64,000 nucleotides of DNA, from the NCBI RefSeq assembly GCF_058153355.1, contig NZ_CM177019.1; one strand, 5' to 3'. Positions 1-43,714 of the stretch are shown one piece after another (position 1 is the stretch's first letter; each line of letters begins with the position of its first letter). The translations under genes and the position numbers were made by a program. Below the pieces are notes generated by a model, which was not told where the DNA came from, searched no databases, and worked only from the letters and a program-made list of their open reading frames with translations.

Positions 1-143
1 AAGCGGCAACACTGGAAGATGTAGGTCGTGAAATTGGCCTCACCCGTGAACGTGTTCGCCAGATTCAGGTTGAAGGCCTGCGCCGTTTGCGCGAAATCCT
101 GCAAACGCAGGGGCTGAATATCGAAGCGTTGTTCCGCGAATAA
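1..143 (+). CDS. rpoS: RNA polymerase sigma factor RpoS, 3' end only (gene starts upstream of window)
   Basis: Translation from position 3 reads [46 protein letters not shown] then stop at 141-143; matches the RpoS C-terminal region-4 HTH. Confidence 0.9.
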
Positions 144-158
144 GTAAGCATCTGTTAG

Positions 159-196
159 AAAGGCCAGTCTCTTATGAGGCTGGCCTTTTTCTTTTG
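159..196 (+). terminator. Rho-independent terminator downstream of rpoS
   Basis: Inverted repeat aggccag...ctggcct followed by a T-run (tttttctttt). Confidence 0.7.
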
Positions 197-263
197 TATG
201 GGGAGTTGGTGTGTTTCGTCGCCTGGATAAGACACGTCAGCGTCCCATCCGGCAATCAACATC

Positions 264-671
264 CTATTTGCTCATCATCTTGCGCACCAGCTGCATAAAC
301 AGCTCCTGCTCTTCTCCACTCAAACGCCCCAAAAATTCCTCATCCACACTGTCGCCAATCGGTATCGCCGCAGCAAGTACCTTTTCTCCTTCGGCAGTCA
401 GCCAGACAAAGCGTCGCCGCTTATCAGCGGTGTCATGTTCACGTCTGACTAAGCCACGATTTTCCATTCTTGCCAACATTTCTGCCAGCGTTGCTTTGGT
501 GCTGACGGCTGCTTCCATCAGTGCCACCTGTTCGATACCAGGTTTATCAGCAATGGCGCGCATCACCGCGTACTGTGGTTTGGTCAGGTCAGGTAACTCG
601 TGCTGCCAGCGGGCCGTATGCTGCTGAAAAAGCTGTCGTAACTGATGGAACGCTTTATTTCGTAACGCCAT
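264..671 (-). CDS. MarR/SlyA-family transcriptional regulator, divergent from the decarboxylase cluster
   Basis: 135-aa ORF of typical MarR size with a central winged-helix-like segment; position and orientation match the SlyA-like regulator described for the rpoS-mutS variable region of non-K-12 E. coli. Confidence 0.75.
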   Translation of the reverse strand: MALRNKAFHQLRQLFQQHTARWQHELPDLTKPQYAVMRAIADKPGIEQVALMEAAVSTKATLAEMLARMENRGLVRREHDTADKRRRFVWLTAEGEKVLAAAIPIGDSVDEEFLGRLSGEEQELFMQLVRKMMSK

Positions 672-786
672 GTAAACTCCGGGCTAATTCTCTGTCGCTA
701 TCATAGCGGTTTTTCAGTGACGAAGAAGATGTTGTTACTTTTCAATCCTTGCCGCTGTGGAAATGAAGGAGTATGCTAATAATAAC

Positions 787-800
787 GTTCGTATACGAAC
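787..800. promoter_or_regulatory. Perfect 14-bp palindrome GTTCGTATACGAAC, candidate MarR-type operator just upstream of the ecdB ribosome-binding site
   Basis: Palindrome read directly; lies between the divergent regulator gene and the ecdB start at 818. Confidence 0.4.
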
Positions 801-817
801 AATTAAGAGAGTAAGCA

Positions 818-1411
818 ATGAAACTGATCGTCGGGATGACAGGGGCTACCGGTGCGCCTCTTGGTGTGGCATTACTGCAAGCGCTGCGGGAGATGCCGAA
901 TGTCGAGACTCATCTGGTGATGTCGAAGTGGGCGAAAACCACTATTGAACTGGAAACGCCTTACAGCGCTCGCGATGTTGCCGCCCTCGCTGACTTCAGC
1001 CATAACCCGGCGGATCAGGCTGCGACCATCTCTTCCGGCTCCTTTCGTACCGACGGCATGATCGTTATTCCATGCAGTATGAAAACGCTCGCCGGTATCC
1101 GCGCTGGTTACGCCGATGGTCTCGTAGGGCGCGCGGCGGACGTCGTGCTCAAAGAAGGCCGCAAACTGGTGCTGGTGCCGCGTGAAATGCCGCTTAGCAC
1201 CATCCATCTCGAAAATATGCTCGCACTTTCGCGCATGGGCGTGGCGATGGTGCCGCCGATGCCTGCCTTTTATAACCATCCCGAAACGGTAGATGACATT
1301 GTCCACCACGTGGTAGCCCGCGTGCTGGATCAATTTGGCCTCGAACATCCTCACGCCAGGCGCTGGCAAGGGTTGCCGCAGGCCCGGAATTTTTCTCAGG
1401 AGAATGAATAA
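818..1411 (+). CDS. ecdB: UbiX-type flavin prenyltransferase, B subunit of hydroxyarylic acid decarboxylase
   Basis: 197-aa ORF with N-terminal GxTGATGA flavoprotein motif (MKLIVGMTGATGAPLG); stop overlaps next start (TAATG). Confidence 0.85.
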   Translation: MKLIVGMTGATGAPLGVALLQALREMPNVETHLVMSKWAKTTIELETPYSARDVAALADFSHNPADQAATISSGSFRTDGMIVIPCSMKTLAGIRAGYADGLVGRAADVVLKEGRKLVLVPREMPLSTIHLENMLALSRMGVAMVPPMPAFYNHPETVDDIVHHVVARVLDQFGLEHPHARRWQGLPQARNFSQENE

Positions 1412-2838
1412 TGGCATTTGATGATTTACGCAGCTTCTTACAGGCGCTTGATGACCACGGCCAGTTACTGAAAATCAGCGAAGAGGTGAACGCGGAACCG
1501 GATCTGGCAGCCGCTGCCAACGCCACCGGGCGTATCGGCGACGGCGCGCCCGCGCTGTGGTTTGATAATATTCGCGGCTTTATCGATGCCCGCGTGGCGA
1601 TGAACACCATCGGCTCCTGGCAGAACCACGCGATTTCCCTCGGGCTGCCACCGAACACACCGGTTAAAAAACAGATTGATGAGTTTATCCGCCGCTGGGA
1701 TAACTTTCCCATTGCCCCGGAACGCCGCGCCAATCCTGCCTGGGCGCAGAACACCGTCGATGGTGACGAGATCAACCTGTTCGATATTCTGCCACTGTTT
1801 CGTTTAAACGATGGCGATGGCGGTTTCTATCTCGACAAAGCGTGCGTGGTTTCCCGCGATCCGCTCGATCCGGATAACTTCGGCAAGCAGAACGTCGGCA
1901 TCTATCGCATGGAAGTGAAGGGTAAGCGTAAGCTCGGCCTGCAACCGGTGCCGATGCACGATATCGCCCTGCATCTGCATAAAGCGGAAGAACGTGGTGA
2001 AGATTTGCCAATTGCCATCACGCTGGGTAACGATCCGATCATCACCCTGATGGGCGCCACCCCGCTGAAATATGATCAATCGGAGTACGAAATGGCGGGC
2101 GCGCTACGCGAAAGCCCGTACCCGATCGCCACCGCCCCGCTGACCGGTTTTGATGTGCCGTGGGGTTCAGAAGTGATCCTCGAAGGGGTTATCGAAAGCC
2201 GCAAACGTGAAATCGAAGGGCCGTTCGGTGAGTTTACCGGGCACTACTCCGGTGGGCGCAACATGACCGTAGTGCGCATCGATAAAGTCTCTTACCGCAC
2301 CAAACCGATTTTTGAATCGCTCTATCTCGGTATGCCGTGGACCGAAATCGACTACCTGATGGGGCCTGCCACCTGCGTGCCGCTTTACCAGCAGTTGAAA
2401 GCCGAGTTCCCGGAAGTGCAGGCGGTGAACGCTATGTACACCCACGGCCTGCTGGCGATTATCTCCACCAAAAAACGCTATGGCGGCTTTGCCCGCGCAG
2501 TGGGCCTGCGTGCGATGACCACGCCGCACGGTCTGGGTTATGTGAAGATGGTGATTATGGTCGATGAAGACGTTGACCCGTTCAACCTGCCGCAGGTGAT
2601 GTGGGCGCTCTCGTCGAAAGTGAACCCGGCAGGGGATCTGGTGCAGTTGCCGAATATGTCAGTACTGGAACTCGACCCTGGCTCAAGCCCGGCGGGGATC
2701 ACCGATAAGCTGATTATCGACGTCACCACGCCTGTCGCCCCGGACAACCGTGGTCACTACAGCCAGCCGGTGGTGGACTTACCGGAAACCAAAGCCTGGG
2801 CTGAAAAACTGACCGCTATGCTGGCCGCACGTAAATAA
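1411..2838 (+). CDS. ecdC: UbiD-family decarboxylase, C subunit of hydroxyarylic acid decarboxylase
   Basis: 475-aa ORF, UbiD-family size and composition; translationally coupled to ecdB. Confidence 0.85.
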   Translation: MAFDDLRSFLQALDDHGQLLKISEEVNAEPDLAAAANATGRIGDGAPALWFDNIRGFIDARVAMNTIGSWQNHAISLGLPPNTPVKKQIDEFIRRWDNFPIAPERRANPAWAQNTVDGDEINLFDILPLFRLNDGDGGFYLDKACVVSRDPLDPDNFGKQNVGIYRMEVKGKRKLGLQPVPMHDIALHLHKAEERGEDLPIAITLGNDPIITLMGATPLKYDQSEYEMAGALRESPYPIATAPLTGFDVPWGSEVILEGVIESRKREIEGPFGEFTGHYSGGRNMTVVRIDKVSYRTKPIFESLYLGMPWTEIDYLMGPATCVPLYQQLKAEFPEVQAVNAMYTHGLLAIISTKKRYGGFARAVGLRAMTTPHGLGYVKMVIMVDEDVDPFNLPQVMWALSSKVNPAGDLVQLPNMSVLELDPGSSPAGITDKLIIDVTTPVAPDNRGHYSQPVVDLPETKAWAEKLTAMLAARK

Positions 2839-3805: not shown

Positions 3806-4669
3806 TTATTCCGGCTTATGAAACAGAATGGTGTTAATCTCGACATCAGTGATTGCGCCAGCTGCTTCTGCTTTATGTAACCAGTATAGCGCTTTGTCTT
3901 TATCCACACCGTTCTCATCAATGCCCCAGGCGTAAATGCGGCCTAAGGATATTTGGGCATGAGGTAAATCTTGTGCGGCAGCTTTTTCAAACCAGTATTT
4001 AGCCTGTTTAATATCAGCGGGTACACCATCGCCCGTTAAAAAGAGCGTACCATAATTATACTGACCAATTTTGTCGCCTTTTTCTGCCGCAAACTTAAGA
4101 TATGTCGCAGCCTGGAGATAATTCTTTTCCTCGGCTGCGAGGAGCCCTAAATTAGCATGTGCAATGGGGTTTCCCTTTTGCGCCGCTTTAACGAGCCAGG
4201 ATTTTGCTTTATCGATATCATGGAACTTCTCTGGACCAAACTGATAGATATTGGCACAGTTTATCTGTGCCTGAAGATTTCCCTGTCTGGCTGATTTCTC
4301 ATACCAGTGAATGGCATTCTGGTAATCCGGCGGTGTGTCTTCATCTCCCTGATGATATAAAAGCCCGACATAAAATTGCGCAATGTCATCTCCCTGACTG
4401 GCTGCCAGATTAAACCAGTAAAATGCTTTATCGCGGTTTTTAACCCCCGTTACCCCTTCCTGGTAAACAATTCCCAATCCTTTTTGCGCAGATTTATCGC
4501 CGCCTTGTGCCCTTGCGATGATATTTTTCAGGTTTTCCTGTTTGTTTTTAGAATAACGTTGTTCAGCCTGGATAAGATCATCAAGCGAGGGTTCTTTGGC
4601 ACAATAACCTGTAAGAGGAAAATGCAAAATTAGTAGAGTAAATAAAATTAACTTTTTCATACATTCCAT
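3806..4669 (-). CDS. Sel1-repeat (TPR-like) protein with N-terminal signal peptide; not present at this position in K-12
   Basis: 287-aa ORF; hydrophobic N-terminus MKKLILFTLLILHFPLTG; repeated ~36-aa units with A-x-YWF/ W-Y-E-K-A-A-x-QG spacing typical of Sel1 repeats. Confidence 0.7.
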   Translation of the reverse strand: MECMKKLILFTLLILHFPLTGYCAKEPSLDDLIQAEQRYSKNKQENLKNIIARAQGGDKSAQKGLGIVYQEGVTGVKNRDKAFYWFNLAASQGDDIAQFYVGLLYHQGDEDTPPDYQNAIHWYEKSARQGNLQAQINCANIYQFGPEKFHDIDKAKSWLVKAAQKGNPIAHANLGLLAAEEKNYLQAATYLKFAAEKGDKIGQYNYGTLFLTGDGVPADIKQAKYWFEKAAAQDLPHAQISLGRIYAWGIDENGVDKDKALYWLHKAEAAGAITDVEINTILFHKPE

Positions 4670-4768
4670 GAATTAATTGTTGAGTCCTGATTTTAATTAT
4701 ACTCCATCTGTTATTGAGCCAATAATAATTAATAATCCCCGATGGGAAGGCCATCGGGAATTATGCCA

Positions 4769-7330
4769 TTACAGCAAACTCTTCAAGCGATAAATCCACT
4801 CCAGCGCCTGACGCGGAGTCAGTGAATCCGGGTCGAGATTTTCCAGTGCTTCGACCGCTGGCGAGGTTTCTTCCGGTACTGACAGCAAAGACATTTGCGT
4901 ACCATCCACTTGCGTAGCGGCGGCGTTCGGCGAAATGCTTTCCAGTTCACGCAGTTTTTGCCGTGCGCGCTTAATAACCTCTTTTGGCACGCCCGCCAGA
5001 GCAGCAACCGCCAGGCCGTAACTTTTGCTCGCCGCGCCATCCTGCACGCTATGCATAAAGGCAATGGTATCACCGTGCTCCAGCGCATCAAGATGCACGT
5101 TGGCGACGCCTTCCATTTTCTCCGGCAGTTGAGTCAGTTCAAAGTAGTGGGTAGCAAACAACGTCAACGCTTTAATCTTATTCGCCAGATTTTCAGCGCA
5201 CGCCCATGCCAGCGACAGACCATCGTAAGTGGACGTTCCGCGCCCAATCTCATCCATCAACACCAGGCTGTACTCCGTGGCGTTATGCAGAATATTAGCG
5301 GTTTCGGTCATCTCCACCATAAAGGTTGAACGCCCGGATGCCAGATCGTCAGCCGCGCCCACACGGGTAAAGATACGGTCAATCGGGCCAATCTCGACTT
5401 TTTGCGCCGGTACGTAGCTGCCGATATAGGCCATCAGCGCAATCAGTGCGGTCTGGCGCATATAGGTACTTTTACCGCCCATGTTCGGACCGGTGATGAT
5501 CAACATGCGACGCTGCGGCGACAGGTTCAGCGGGTTAGCGATAAACGGCTCATTCAGTACCTGTTCAACCACCGGATGGCGACCTTCGGTAATGCGAATG
5601 CCCGGTTTATCAATGAAGGTCGGGCAGGTGTAGTTCAGGGTATAGGCCCGTTCCGCCAGGTTTACCAGTACGTCGAGTTCTGCCAGTGCGCTCGCGCTCT
5701 GTTGCAACGCTTCCAGATGCGGCAACAACAGGTCGAACAACTCTTCATAAAGCTGTTTTTCCAGTGCCAGCGCTTTACCTTTCGAGGTGAGTACTTTGTC
5801 TTCATACTCTTTTAGCTCTGGAATAATGTAGCGTTCGGCGTTTTTCAGCGTCTGGCGACGCATATAGTTGATGGGTGCCAGATGGCTTTGTCCACGGCTA
5901 ATCTGAATGTAATAACCATGCACCGCGTTAAAGCCGACTTTCAGCGTGTCCAGGCCGGTACGTTCACGCTCGCGAACTTCCAGACGCTCCAGATAATCTG
6001 TCGCGCCGTCAGCCAGCGCTCGCCACTCATCCAGCTCTTCGTTATAGCCTGATGCGATAACACCACCGTCGCGTACCAGCACCGGCGGTGTGTCGATGAT
6101 TGCTCGCTCCAGCAGATCGCGCAGCTCTGCAAACTCGCCCATTTTCTCACGCAGCGCCTGTACCGGTGCACTAGCGACATTTTCTAACTGCGCACGCAGC
6201 TCCGGCAGTTGCTGGAAAGCGTGACGCATACGGGCCAGATCGCGTGGGCGGGCAGTCCGTAAAGCCAGACGTGCCAGAATACGTTCCAGGTCGCCGACCT
6301 GACGCAGTACCGGCTGCAGCTCAGCGGTGAAATCCTGCAATGCGCCAATAGTTTGCTGGCGCTCAAGCAACACGCGGGTATCGCGCACTGGCATATGCAG
6401 CCAGCGTTTCAGCATTCGACTCCCCATCGGCGTTACAGTGCAGTCGAGCACGGAAGCCAGCGTGTTTTCCGCACCGCCCGCCAGGTTCTGGGTAATTTCC
6501 AGGTTACGACGCGTCGCGGCATCCATAATGATGCTGTCCTGCTCACGTTCCATAGTGATAGAACGAATATGCGGCAGAGTCGTACGTTGAGTATCTTTCG
6601 CATACTGCAACAGACAACCGGCGGCACAAAGTCCGCGCGGCGCGTTCTCGACGCCAAAACCGACCAGATCGCGAGTGCCAAATTGTAGATTCAACTGCTG
6701 GCGCGCGGTGTCGATTTCAAACTCCCACAGCGGGCGACGGCGCAAGCCGCGACGACCTTCAATCAGCGACATTTCAGCAAAATCTTCTGCATACAGCAGT
6801 TCCGCCGGATTAGTGCGTTGCAGTTCTGCCGCCATCGTTTCGCGGTCAGCCGGTTCGCTCAGGCGAAAACGACCAGAACTGATATCCAGCGTCGCATAGC
6901 CGAATCCTTTGCTGTCCTGCCAGATAGCAGCCAGCAGGTTGTCCTGACGTTCCTGCAACAGCGCTTCATCGCTGATGGTGCCCGGCGTAACGATACGCAC
7001 AACTTTGCGCTCGACCGGCCCTTTGCTGGTCGCCGGATCGCCAATCTGTTCACAAATAGCAACGGACTCGCCCTGATTCACCAGTTTGGCGAGATAGTTT
7101 TCCACCGCATGGTAGGGAATCCCCGCCATCGGGATCGGCTCTCCCGCCGAAGCGCCGCGTTTGGTCAGTGAAATATCCAGCAGTTGTGACGCACGTTTTG
7201 CGTCGTCATAAAACAGTTCGTAAAAGTCACCCATCCGGTAGAACAGCAGGATCTCGGGATGCTGGGCTTTCAGCTTGAGATACTGCTGCATCATTGGCGT
7301 ATGGGCGTCAAAATTTTCTATTGCACTCAT
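4769..7330 (-). CDS. mutS: DNA mismatch repair protein MutS
   Basis: 853-aa [24 protein letters not shown]..., Walker [10 protein letters not shown]; full length. Confidence 0.97.
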
Positions 7331-41674: not shown

Positions 41675-42760
41675 ATGTTCAAGCGTCGTTATGTAACATT
41701 GCTTCCCCTTTTTGTGTTGCTTGCCGCCTGTAGCAGCAAGCCAAAACCTACTGAGACTGAAACGACCACCGGAACGCCGTCTGGCGGCTTCCTGCTTGAG
41801 CCGCAGCACAATGTGATGCAGATGGGCGGCGATTTCGCTAACAACCCGAATGCCCAGCAGTTCATCGACAAAATGGTGAGCAAACACGGTTTCAATCGTC
41901 AGCAGTTGCAGGAAATTCTCTCCCAGGCGAAACGTCTGGATTCGGTATTGCGGCTGATGGATAACCAGGCACCAACCACATCGGTGAAACCGCCATCAGG
42001 TCCGAACGGCGCATGGCTGCGTTATCGCAAAAAATTTATTACGCCGGACAACGTGCAAAACGGCGTGGTTTTCTGGAATCAGTATGAAGACGCGTTGAAT
42101 CGTGCGTGGCAGGTGTATGGTGTACCGCCGGAAATTATCGTCGGGATTATCGGCGTCGAAACTCGCTGGGGACGCGTGATGGGGAAAACTCGTATCCTCG
42201 ATGCGCTGGCAACGTTGTCATTTAACTACCCACGCCGCGCGGAGTATTTCTCTGGTGAGCTGGAAACCTTCTTGCTGATGGCGCGCGACGAGCAGGACGA
42301 TCCGCTCAATCTGAAAGGCTCGTTTGCCGGTGCGATGGGCTACGGTCAGTTTATGCCATCGTCTTATAAACAATATGCAGTGGATTTTAGCGGCGACGGG
42401 CATATCAACCTGTGGGATCCGGTTGATGCCATCGGTAGCGTGGCGAACTATTTCAAAGCGCACGGCTGGGTGAAAGGTGATCAGGTTGCGGTAATGGCAA
42501 ACGGTCAGGCTCCAGGCTTGCCAAATGGCTTCAAAACCAAGTACAGCATTTCGCAGCTTGCCGCGGCAGGTTTAACGCCACAGCAGCCGCTGGGCAACCA
42601 TCAGCAGGCCAGCTTACTGCGCCTGGATGTTGGCACCGGTTACCAGTACTGGTACGGTTTGCCGAACTTCTACACTATCACCCGTTACAATCACAGCACC
42701 CATTACGCAATGGCCGTCTGGCAGTTAGGACAAGCCGTGGCACTGGCGCGCGTTCAGTAA
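41675..42760 (+). CDS. mltB: Membrane-bound lytic murein transglycosylase B
   Basis: 361 aa from MFKRRYVTLLPLFVLLAACSSKP (lipobox LAAC); upstream extension rejected. Confidence 0.93.
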   Translation: MFKRRYVTLLPLFVLLAACSSKPKPTETETTTGTPSGGFLLEPQHNVMQMGGDFANNPNAQQFIDKMVSKHGFNRQQLQEILSQAKRLDSVLRLMDNQAPTTSVKPPSGPNGAWLRYRKKFITPDNVQNGVVFWNQYEDALNRAWQVYGVPPEIIVGIIGVETRWGRVMGKTRILDALATLSFNYPRRAEYFSGELETFLLMARDEQDDPLNLKGSFAGAMGYGQFMPSSYKQYAVDFSGDGHINLWDPVDAIGSVANYFKAHGWVKGDQVAVMANGQAPGLPNGFKTKYSISQLAAAGLTPQQPLGNHQQASLLRLDVGTGYQYWYGLPNFYTITRYNHSTHYAMAVWQLGQAVALARVQ

Positions 42761-42798
42761 CTCTTTGCAAGAGGGAGGTTAAACTTCCCTCTGTTTTC

Positions 42799-43038
42799 TT
42801 ACTGTTTATTCGAATGACGTAATTGCTTGATTTTTTTCGACAGCGATATCGCATATCCCAGGCAGACAACGCCTAACGCAGCCTGACCGAAGTCGAAAGG
42901 TTCAAGGTAGCCAGAAGATAAAATTTTACATATCACTGAAACCAGTGCGCCGATGCCACCAATGATGACCCAAATACGCATTTGCGTGGTTTGTTTAAGC
43001 ACGTTTTGTGGCGTGTTATCCGTTTTCTTTGTTGCCAT
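42799..43038 (-). CDS. Candidate small membrane protein (~79 aa; alternative start gives ~60 aa)
   Basis: ORF from MATKKTDNT with a gggagag Shine-Dalgarno ~8 nt upstream; two hydrophobic helices (IWVIIGGIGALVSVICKIL, AALGVVCLGYAISL). Confidence 0.3.
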   Translation of the reverse strand: MATKKTDNTPQNVLKQTTQMRIWVIIGGIGALVSVICKILSSGYLEPFDFGQAALGVVCLGYAISLSKKIKQLRHSNKQ

Positions 43039-43217
43039 TGCTATTCTCTCCCTGTGAATACATATCAATGTGAACGCGGCATGGTAGCGCTTTTTCTTTA
43101 CCGACTGGTCGCAACAGTCTTTTTCCGGAACGCAACTCGTAAAATCAATCGCTCGTCCCCATCTTCTGCGGGAAAGTGCTATCTTGTCCGGCATATATTT
43201 TTTGACTGACTGAGGTT

Positions 43218-43714
43218 GTGATGATTGACAGTGAACTGATGCAGTTAAGCGAACAGGTAGGGCAGGCGCTGAAAGCCCGTGGCGCAACCGTAACAACTGC
43301 CGAGTCTTGTACCGGCGGTTGGGTAGCGAAAGTGATTACCGATATTGCCGGTAGTTCCGCCTGGTTTGAACGCGGATTTGTCACCTACAGTAACGAAGCC
43401 AAAGCGCAGATGATCGGCGTACGCGAAGAGACGCTGGCGCAGCACGGCGCGGTGAGCGAACCCGTCGTGGTGGAAATGGCGATAGGCGCACTGAAAGCGG
43501 CTCGTGCTGATTATGCCGTGTCTATCAGCGGTATCGCTGGGCCGGATGGCGGCAGTGAAGAGAAACCTGTCGGCACTGTCTGGTTTGCTTTTGCCACTGC
43601 CCGCGGCGAAGGCATTACCCGCCGGGAATGCTTCAGCGGTGACCGTGATGCGGTGCGTCGTCAGGCTACTGCGTATGCATTGCAAACCTTGTGGCAACAA
43701 TTTCTACAAAACAC

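Follow-up and report, generated by a model that had tools for sequence, protein, structure and literature searches.

A small gene between mltB and pncC of Escherichia, with orthologues in Salmonella and Citrobacter, predicted to encode a two-helix membrane protein

The reading frame between mltB and pncC

Does the spacer between mltB and pncC of Escherichia encode a protein, and what would such a protein do? In the window, the whole stretch of 64,000 nucleotides analyzed here, the mltB stop (42760) and the pncC start (43221) enclose 460 bp, close to the ~450 bp given by the initial annotation. This gap contains an ORF of 79 codons on the minus strand (42799..43038), which the initial annotation had described correctly in position, strand and length. 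The ORF is oriented convergently to mltB and divergently from pncC-recA-recX. Its ATG start codon occupies positions 43036-43038, with 43038 as the first base, and its TAA stop codon positions 42799-42801. The translated 79-aa product is MATKKTDNTPQNVLKQTTQMRIWVIIGGIGALVSVICKILSSGYLEPFDFGQAALGVVCLGYAISLSKKIKQLRHSNKQ. A Shine-Dalgarno sequence, GGGAGAG (43046..43052, minus strand), is located 7 nt 5' of the ATG, in agreement with the good ribosome-binding site noted earlier. Its GAGAG core was retained in most of 11 aligned upstream regions from Escherichia, Salmonella and Citrobacter and was reduced to AGAG or AAGG in one Citrobacter contig and one distant enterobacterium. A shorter product of ~60 aa, starting from an internal ATG (M20), had also been considered. 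This alternative start is disfavored, because M20 is replaced by Leu in Salmonella and Citrobacter and the N-terminal motif LKQxxQxR upstream of it is conserved.

The ORF had been regarded as unannotated. In fact, RefSeq contains a CDS with the same ends, the hypothetical protein WP_032184982.1, in E. coli 2020CK-00188, where the interval is 100% identical to the window. A hypothetical protein with an intact CDS was annotated at this segment in all of the sampled E. coli records that carry it (40 of 40).

Six Escherichia lineages carry the 79-codon frame uninterrupted and share the order mltB-ORF-pncC-recA: the window, a B2-type E. coli, E. albertii, E. whittamii and two further lineages. Exact or near-exact copies of the protein were found in E. 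fergusonii. The initial annotation had proposed a check of conservation and synonymous substitution, and this check spoke for a gene: the frame is kept across Escherichia, with pairwise Nei-Gojobori dN/dS values of 0.08-0.27 at a dS of 0.12-0.31 between the lineages. The neighboring genes, analyzed for comparison, gave dN/dS values of 0.01-0.10 at a dS of 0.08-0.45, so that the constraint on the ORF is weaker than that on its neighbors. Pooled over all pairs, pN/pS was 0.17 in the annotated frame, compared to 0.35-3.5 in the other five. Only the annotated frame is free of stops; the other five of the six all contain them. The 33 variable sites were distributed 8/3/22 over codon positions 1/2/3. 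A significant depletion of synonymous variation in the 3' third of the gene was not found, and there is therefore no sign of an overlapping RNA constraint. Taken as a whole, we regard it as almost certain that 42799..43038 is a genuine protein-coding gene.

Distribution in Escherichia and beyond

The initial annotation had compared the gap with K-12. The window does not come from K-12; the corresponding gap in MG1655 measures only 144 bp and has no such ORF. The gap is likewise 144 bp in O157, and nothing is annotated inside it in either strain. Alignment revealed that a segment of ~310 bp (42795..43105), comprising the ORF, its Shine-Dalgarno sequence and ~65 nt of upstream DNA, is missing from K-12/O157-type E. 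coli, and that these strains retain a hairpin on the mltB side and the pncC-proximal ~115 bp. The segment was detected in 573 of 5426 complete E. coli genomes, always as a single chromosomal copy; about 90% of the complete genomes, K-12 and O157 among them, lack the gene. The commonest copy of the segment is an allele 95.5% identical to the window. Protein records with this allele came from O25b:H4 and SE15, which we take to be B2 strains. The gene was present in every Escherichia species sampled. Since outgroups as well as all Escherichia species carry it, the absence from K-12-type strains is most simply explained by a derived deletion.

Among the alleles in the databases, many switch to frameshifted C-termini at a run of seven A residues in the coding strand (42831..42837, minus strand; codons K68-K69-I70), a switch that may reflect slippage, sequencing error or decay. 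Frameshifted forms were found on 1-17 contigs each, compared to at least 1000 and 352 contigs for the intact alleles. E. marmotae carries a form of 74 aa, present on 12 contigs. The gene is dispensable, because most E. coli have lost it and because the A7 frameshift alleles and the shortened E. marmotae form exist.

We also observed that the allele of B2-type E. coli is 98-100% identical to the type strain of E. albertii over ~1 kb, with flanks of ~94% identity. This tract (equivalent to ~42210-43250 of the window) takes in the spacer and the small ORF, with a single nucleotide difference in the latter, as well as the 3' half of mltB. The tract looks like the product of inter-species recombination next to recA, and such an event may explain how B2 strains carry the gene.

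A first, word-indexed protein search returned Escherichia proteins only. A HMMER profile search of 1.8 billion representatives yielded 9 proteins, with Citrobacter- and Salmonella-type representatives at E values of 5e-17 to 1e-10. A word search with a profile yielded 55 proteins, the named sources being Salmonella enterica (several subspecies, and Typhi), Citrobacter (including C. amalonaticus) and Affinibrenneria salicis. The named Salmonella and Citrobacter proteins matched with E values of 1e-24 to 1e-35, an identity of 45-57% and a coverage of 94-99%. The family comprises proteins of 79-83 residues that are encoded at a single chromosomal slot, the same in Escherichia, Salmonella and Citrobacter. 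For comparisons within and between the latter two genera, dN/dS ranged from 0.06 to 0.48. Between genera the protein was conserved, whereas the DNA was saturated (dS >1.4 or not computable). A dN of ~0.4 between Escherichia and Salmonella indicates a fast-evolving protein.

The arrangement of the slot, with pncC (CinA), recA and recX on one side and mltB (SLT_2) on the other, was the same in Salmonella and Citrobacter (one Citrobacter contig was assigned via its MltB). In a distant enterobacterium, a metal-transporter operon of the ZnuA/ABC-3/ABC_tran type (contig 4268-6715) lies between the small gene and mltB, with pncC still adjoining. The Affinibrenneria member is located elsewhere and is, apart from one Salmonella insertion case, the only member outside the pncC slot. 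A 78-aa ORF adjoining the Affinibrenneria homologue was considered as a partner or paralogue and was rejected, as it is unrelated. In the Salmonella genome GCA_042791695.1, a 454-aa ORF (61-1425, plus strand) is found at the usual place of pncC, 76 nt upstream of the orthologue and on the same strand; this ORF gave no Pfam or PADLOC match. On the far side of mltB, the srl (sorbitol PTS) operon is the neighbor in E. coli and Salmonella. E. albertii has unrelated DNA at this position (47-61% 'identity'), and Citrobacter sp. Awk 4 has a gene with SIS/CBS domains in place of the srl operon. Fragments 53-58% identical to the small protein were additionally found in two unannotated records of ~1.9 kb labelled 'Escherichia phage ECO95 1-6-1' (OR845620.1, 2-115; OR845594.1, 1875-1967). 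Both look like bacterial chromosomal DNA of the Salmonella/Citrobacter type that was filed as phage.

The Salmonella orthologue has been listed before as a small-protein candidate, STsORF92 (SL1344 2999268-2999513, plus strand, 81 aa; Venturini et al. 2020, PMC10117436, Table S1). It was predicted by sPepFinder only and not by Ribo-seq (PMC10117436, Table S1), and its entry reads 'independent; no tss, low transcription' (PMC10117436). No significant change was reported for it in the infection dual RNA-seq tables (PMC10117436). Like the Escherichia gene, STsORF92 is flanked by pncC and mltB and oriented divergently from pncC, and its product is ~50% identical to the Escherichia protein over the full length. 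The two proteins agree in size, in having two hydrophobic segments and in the motifs LKQ..Q.R.W, GG, SGY.EP.D.GQ, CLGY and SKKI, although about half of the positions differ and the Escherichia proteins have 79 aa instead of 81 aa. STsORF92 is itself a computational candidate without an assigned function. It was recorded as lacking conservation in E. coli MG1655 (PMC10117436); this call holds for K-12 and not for the genus Escherichia. Our full-text literature searches retrieved no small-protein paper on this peptide or on the mltB/pncC locus.

The suggestion of a missed small protein thus stood in one part only. A real small membrane-protein gene is supported by the conserved frame, by the signature of purifying selection and by orthologues at the syntenic position in three genera. 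The gene had not been missed, since it is present in RefSeq as a hypothetical protein and its Salmonella orthologue has been published as a candidate. The family itself is unnamed.

Predicted topology of the protein

The two transmembrane helices predicted in the initial annotation were recovered by hydropathy analysis and structure prediction. Two hydrophobic segments were apparent, residues ~22-41 with Kyte-Doolittle values of up to 2.5 and residues ~50-67 with values of up to 1.9. The first corresponds to transmembrane helix 1, IWVIIGGIGALVSVICKIL (42916..42975, minus strand), as placed by hydropathy, the family alignment and an AlphaFold2 helix at residues 9-42. The second, which is short and Gly-rich, corresponds to transmembrane helix 2, FGQAALGVVCLGYAISLS (42838..42891, minus strand), on the same kinds of evidence. 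Between them lies a short acidic loop, SGYLEPFD (residues ~42-49; 42892..42915, minus strand), for which the positive-inside rule predicts a periplasmic location. An AlphaFold2 model built with the 28-sequence family alignment consisted of a helical hairpin, with helices at residues 9-42 and 47-78, at moderate confidence (mean pLDDT 68).

The conserved positions of the family follow this layout. A GG pair is located in the first transmembrane helix, with G28 invariant and G27 nearly invariant across the family alignment. The loop, with the consensus SxGY.EP(F/Y)D.GQ, is the best-conserved motif of the family. Further motifs are LKQ..Q.R.W just N-terminal to the first helix, LG..CLGY within the second and SKKI..L behind it. 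The net charge is +3 for the N-terminus, -2 for the loop and +5 for the C-tail, a pattern that by the positive-inside rule argues for an N-in/C-in orientation. The basic N-terminus and the basic C-tail would accordingly be cytoplasmic and the conserved acidic/aromatic loop periplasmic. We infer from the sequence that the protein is probably a two-helix hairpin of the inner membrane with both termini inside.

No Pfam, NCBIfam or PADLOC family matched the protein. A match to the chlamydial inclusion membrane protein IncE (PF17627) was rejected; it reached 16.5 bits against a cut-off of 27 and was a compositional match, due to the bilobed hydrophobic segment. The family profile had no match in a PDB sequence search at E<=10, and Foldseek comparison of the AlphaFold2 model to the PDB returned nothing at E<=0.001, which is expected for a bare helical hairpin.

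Flanking DNA and candidate functions

A GC-rich hairpin of 10 bp (42770..42792) is located between the convergent stops of mltB and the ORF, with a U-tract on the mltB (plus-strand) side only; in K-12 it is kept with a different loop. On the pncC side, cross-genus alignment revealed two conserved blocks, CTCGTAAAAT and CCCCATCT (43136..43164, plus strand), which lie 14 nt apart in the shared spacer and are not part of the ORF. They are invariant in Escherichia, Salmonella, Citrobacter and one distant enterobacterium; in K-12 they are almost the same, with CACCATCT as the second block. The blocks look like a sigma32-type promoter of pncC with CCCCATNT as the -10 element. [quoted passage not shown]

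A promoter of the ORF itself was not recognized. A scan for sigma70-like consensus sequences gave 0 sites, and our own PWM scan gave no candidate that was both positionally conserved and plausible. A recurring CTGTCA/CAAGAT pair was rejected as promoter of the ORF, as it overlaps the pncC ribosome-binding region. Inspection of the upstream sequence by eye revealed no LexA box (CTG-N10-CAG), only a TGTGA half-site of a CRP site, and no sigma28 or sigmaE box that was conserved between lineages. Rfam had no match at E<=1 in 42600-43400, and no tRNA is located near the ORF. In S. Typhimurium SL1344, a SoxS ChIP-seq site, GCACAAACTGAAACA, with its peak at 2,999,313 was assigned to 'ygaD' (PMC10268841). 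In reality this site lies inside STsORF92, ~40 nt past the start codon (codons ~10-15; Salmonella contig 4030-4044). Regulation of the Escherichia ORF by SoxS was rejected, as the Salmonella marbox lies in the coding region and the box is not conserved in Escherichia.

What, then, might the protein do? By analogy to MgrB, AcrZ, MgtS and SgrT, it is most likely a modulator of a larger membrane protein, to which it would bind and which it would tune under a specific condition. This reading makes the fewest assumptions for a stand-alone, domain-less, two-helix protein with a conserved loop and juxtamembrane motifs. MgrB, AcrZ, MgtS, SgrT and PmrR are small inner-membrane regulators of Enterobacteria, mostly shorter than 50 aa and with one transmembrane helix. 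The present protein resembles them by kind only: they are short, hydrophobic and encoded by solitary genes, have no enzymatic domain and are frequently overlooked, confined to some lineages or tied to specific conditions, whereas it has 79 aa and two helices. No enzymatic domain was found in it, and our searches gave no partner protein, operon mate, inducing signal or domain hinting at a mechanism. For an accessory or regulatory role, as opposed to a pore or a toxin, we see about an even chance. The complete reading, a genuine gene for a membrane hairpin that probably modulates another membrane protein, was assigned a probability of roughly 55%.

Two alternatives question whether the protein matters at all. 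If the segment acted at the level of nucleic acid, as a regulatory spacer, an sRNA or a terminator region for mltB/pncC, the ORF would be incidental. The mltB terminator hairpin within the segment, the adjoining pncC promoter blocks and the SoxS ChIP site within the Salmonella orthologue are in line with such a role. K-12, however, has the hairpin and the pncC blocks without the ORF, Escherichia does not retain the SoxS box and no Rfam family matched. The clustering of changes at third codon positions, the single open frame and the conservation of the protein between genera at saturated DNA leave this alternative with hardly any probability, so that a role of the nucleic acid alone is nearly excluded. 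The second alternative, which we consider unlikely, is decay: in Escherichia the gene would be a relic, with past selection still visible in an open frame whose function is gone, and with the losses and frameshifts as steps of the decay. Its absence from about 90% of complete E. coli genomes, the A7 frameshift variants, the truncated E. marmotae form, the lack of a recognized promoter and the low expression of the Salmonella orthologue would all fit. Against decay, the frame is intact with a dN/dS of ~0.17 in six Escherichia lineages at a dS of 0.12-0.31, the intact alleles dominate by contig count and the CDS was intact in each of the 40 sampled E. coli records with the segment.

A third alternative concerns the mode of action and is as improbable as decay. 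The protein might be holin- or toxin-like, oligomerizing via its Gly-rich helices and permeabilizing or depolarizing the inner membrane when induced, and otherwise near-silent. In one version, by analogy to CidA/LrgA, it would be tied to murein hydrolysis by the neighboring MltB. In size (~70-80 aa), two transmembrane segments, Gly-rich helices and a highly basic C-tail, the protein does fit the architecture of class II holins such as the P21 pinholin S21 (PF04971) and the phage family phrog_1129. The Escherichia protein matched the PHROG holin phrog_1129 weakly (E=0.001), 4 of 28 family members weakly matched Pfam PF04971 (P21 holin S; best E=0.006) and one UniProt entry is automatically named 'Holin'. 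The missing TSS and low transcription in Salmonella would suit a tightly repressed toxic product, and a lytic transglycosylase gene adjoins. However, these matches were far below the curated cut-offs, none was obtained when members from Salmonella, Citrobacter and more distant sources were tested, and the window protein itself did not match PF04971. When aligned by hhalign to S21 (with the S21 sequence entered by hand), the probability was 31.6% over 25 columns, and the first transmembrane helix was paired with TMD2 of S21. Membership in the class II holins was rejected on these sub-threshold scores and the non-collinear alignment. A tblastn search yielded no annotated phage holin. Unlike the genes of the phage proteins, the gene lies outside any lysis cassette, with neither an endolysin gene nor other phage genes around it, and lacks a dual-start motif; it is a vertically inherited, single, fixed chromosomal copy beside the housekeeping genes mltB, pncC and recA. 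MltB, a lipoprotein exported via Sec/Lol, needs no holin, and the linkage to mltB is broken in the enterobacterium with the ZnuA-type ABC transporter in between and in Affinibrenneria. The 79 aa and two hydrophobic segments do not fit a type I toxin of the Hok, TisB, Ibs or Ldr type (<~60 aa, a single transmembrane helix). The search for an antisense or adjacent antitoxin RNA was negative: there was no Rfam match (E<=1) in 42600-43400 and no excess conservation of synonymous sites, which leaves room for a novel sRNA. Still less probable, and speculative, is a domesticated, chromosomally fixed pinholin-like protein that is silent beside the sigma32-driven pncC-recA and mltB and that, under envelope or oxidative stress, would depolarize the membrane or gate murein hydrolases, kept by ExPEC B2 strains and Salmonella and lost by K-12. 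If true, it would be a Gram-negative counterpart of CidA/LrgA-type autolysis control.

The modulator reading is preferred as the one with the fewest assumptions, and the locus itself is best read as a fast-evolving, dispensable gene for a small membrane protein. As the gene is dispensable, its practical weight is modest. It is common to Escherichia, Salmonella and Citrobacter and located beside recA, yet it is invisible in small-protein catalogues based on K-12, which is thus an incomplete reference even in regions that look like core genome. STsORF92 is now tied to a well-supported family of orthologues, with evolutionary coding evidence that was absent from the Salmonella study. The retention of the gene in B2 strains (ST131-type and other ExPEC), as opposed to its loss in most commensal-type lineages, offers a comparative handle for a phenotype.
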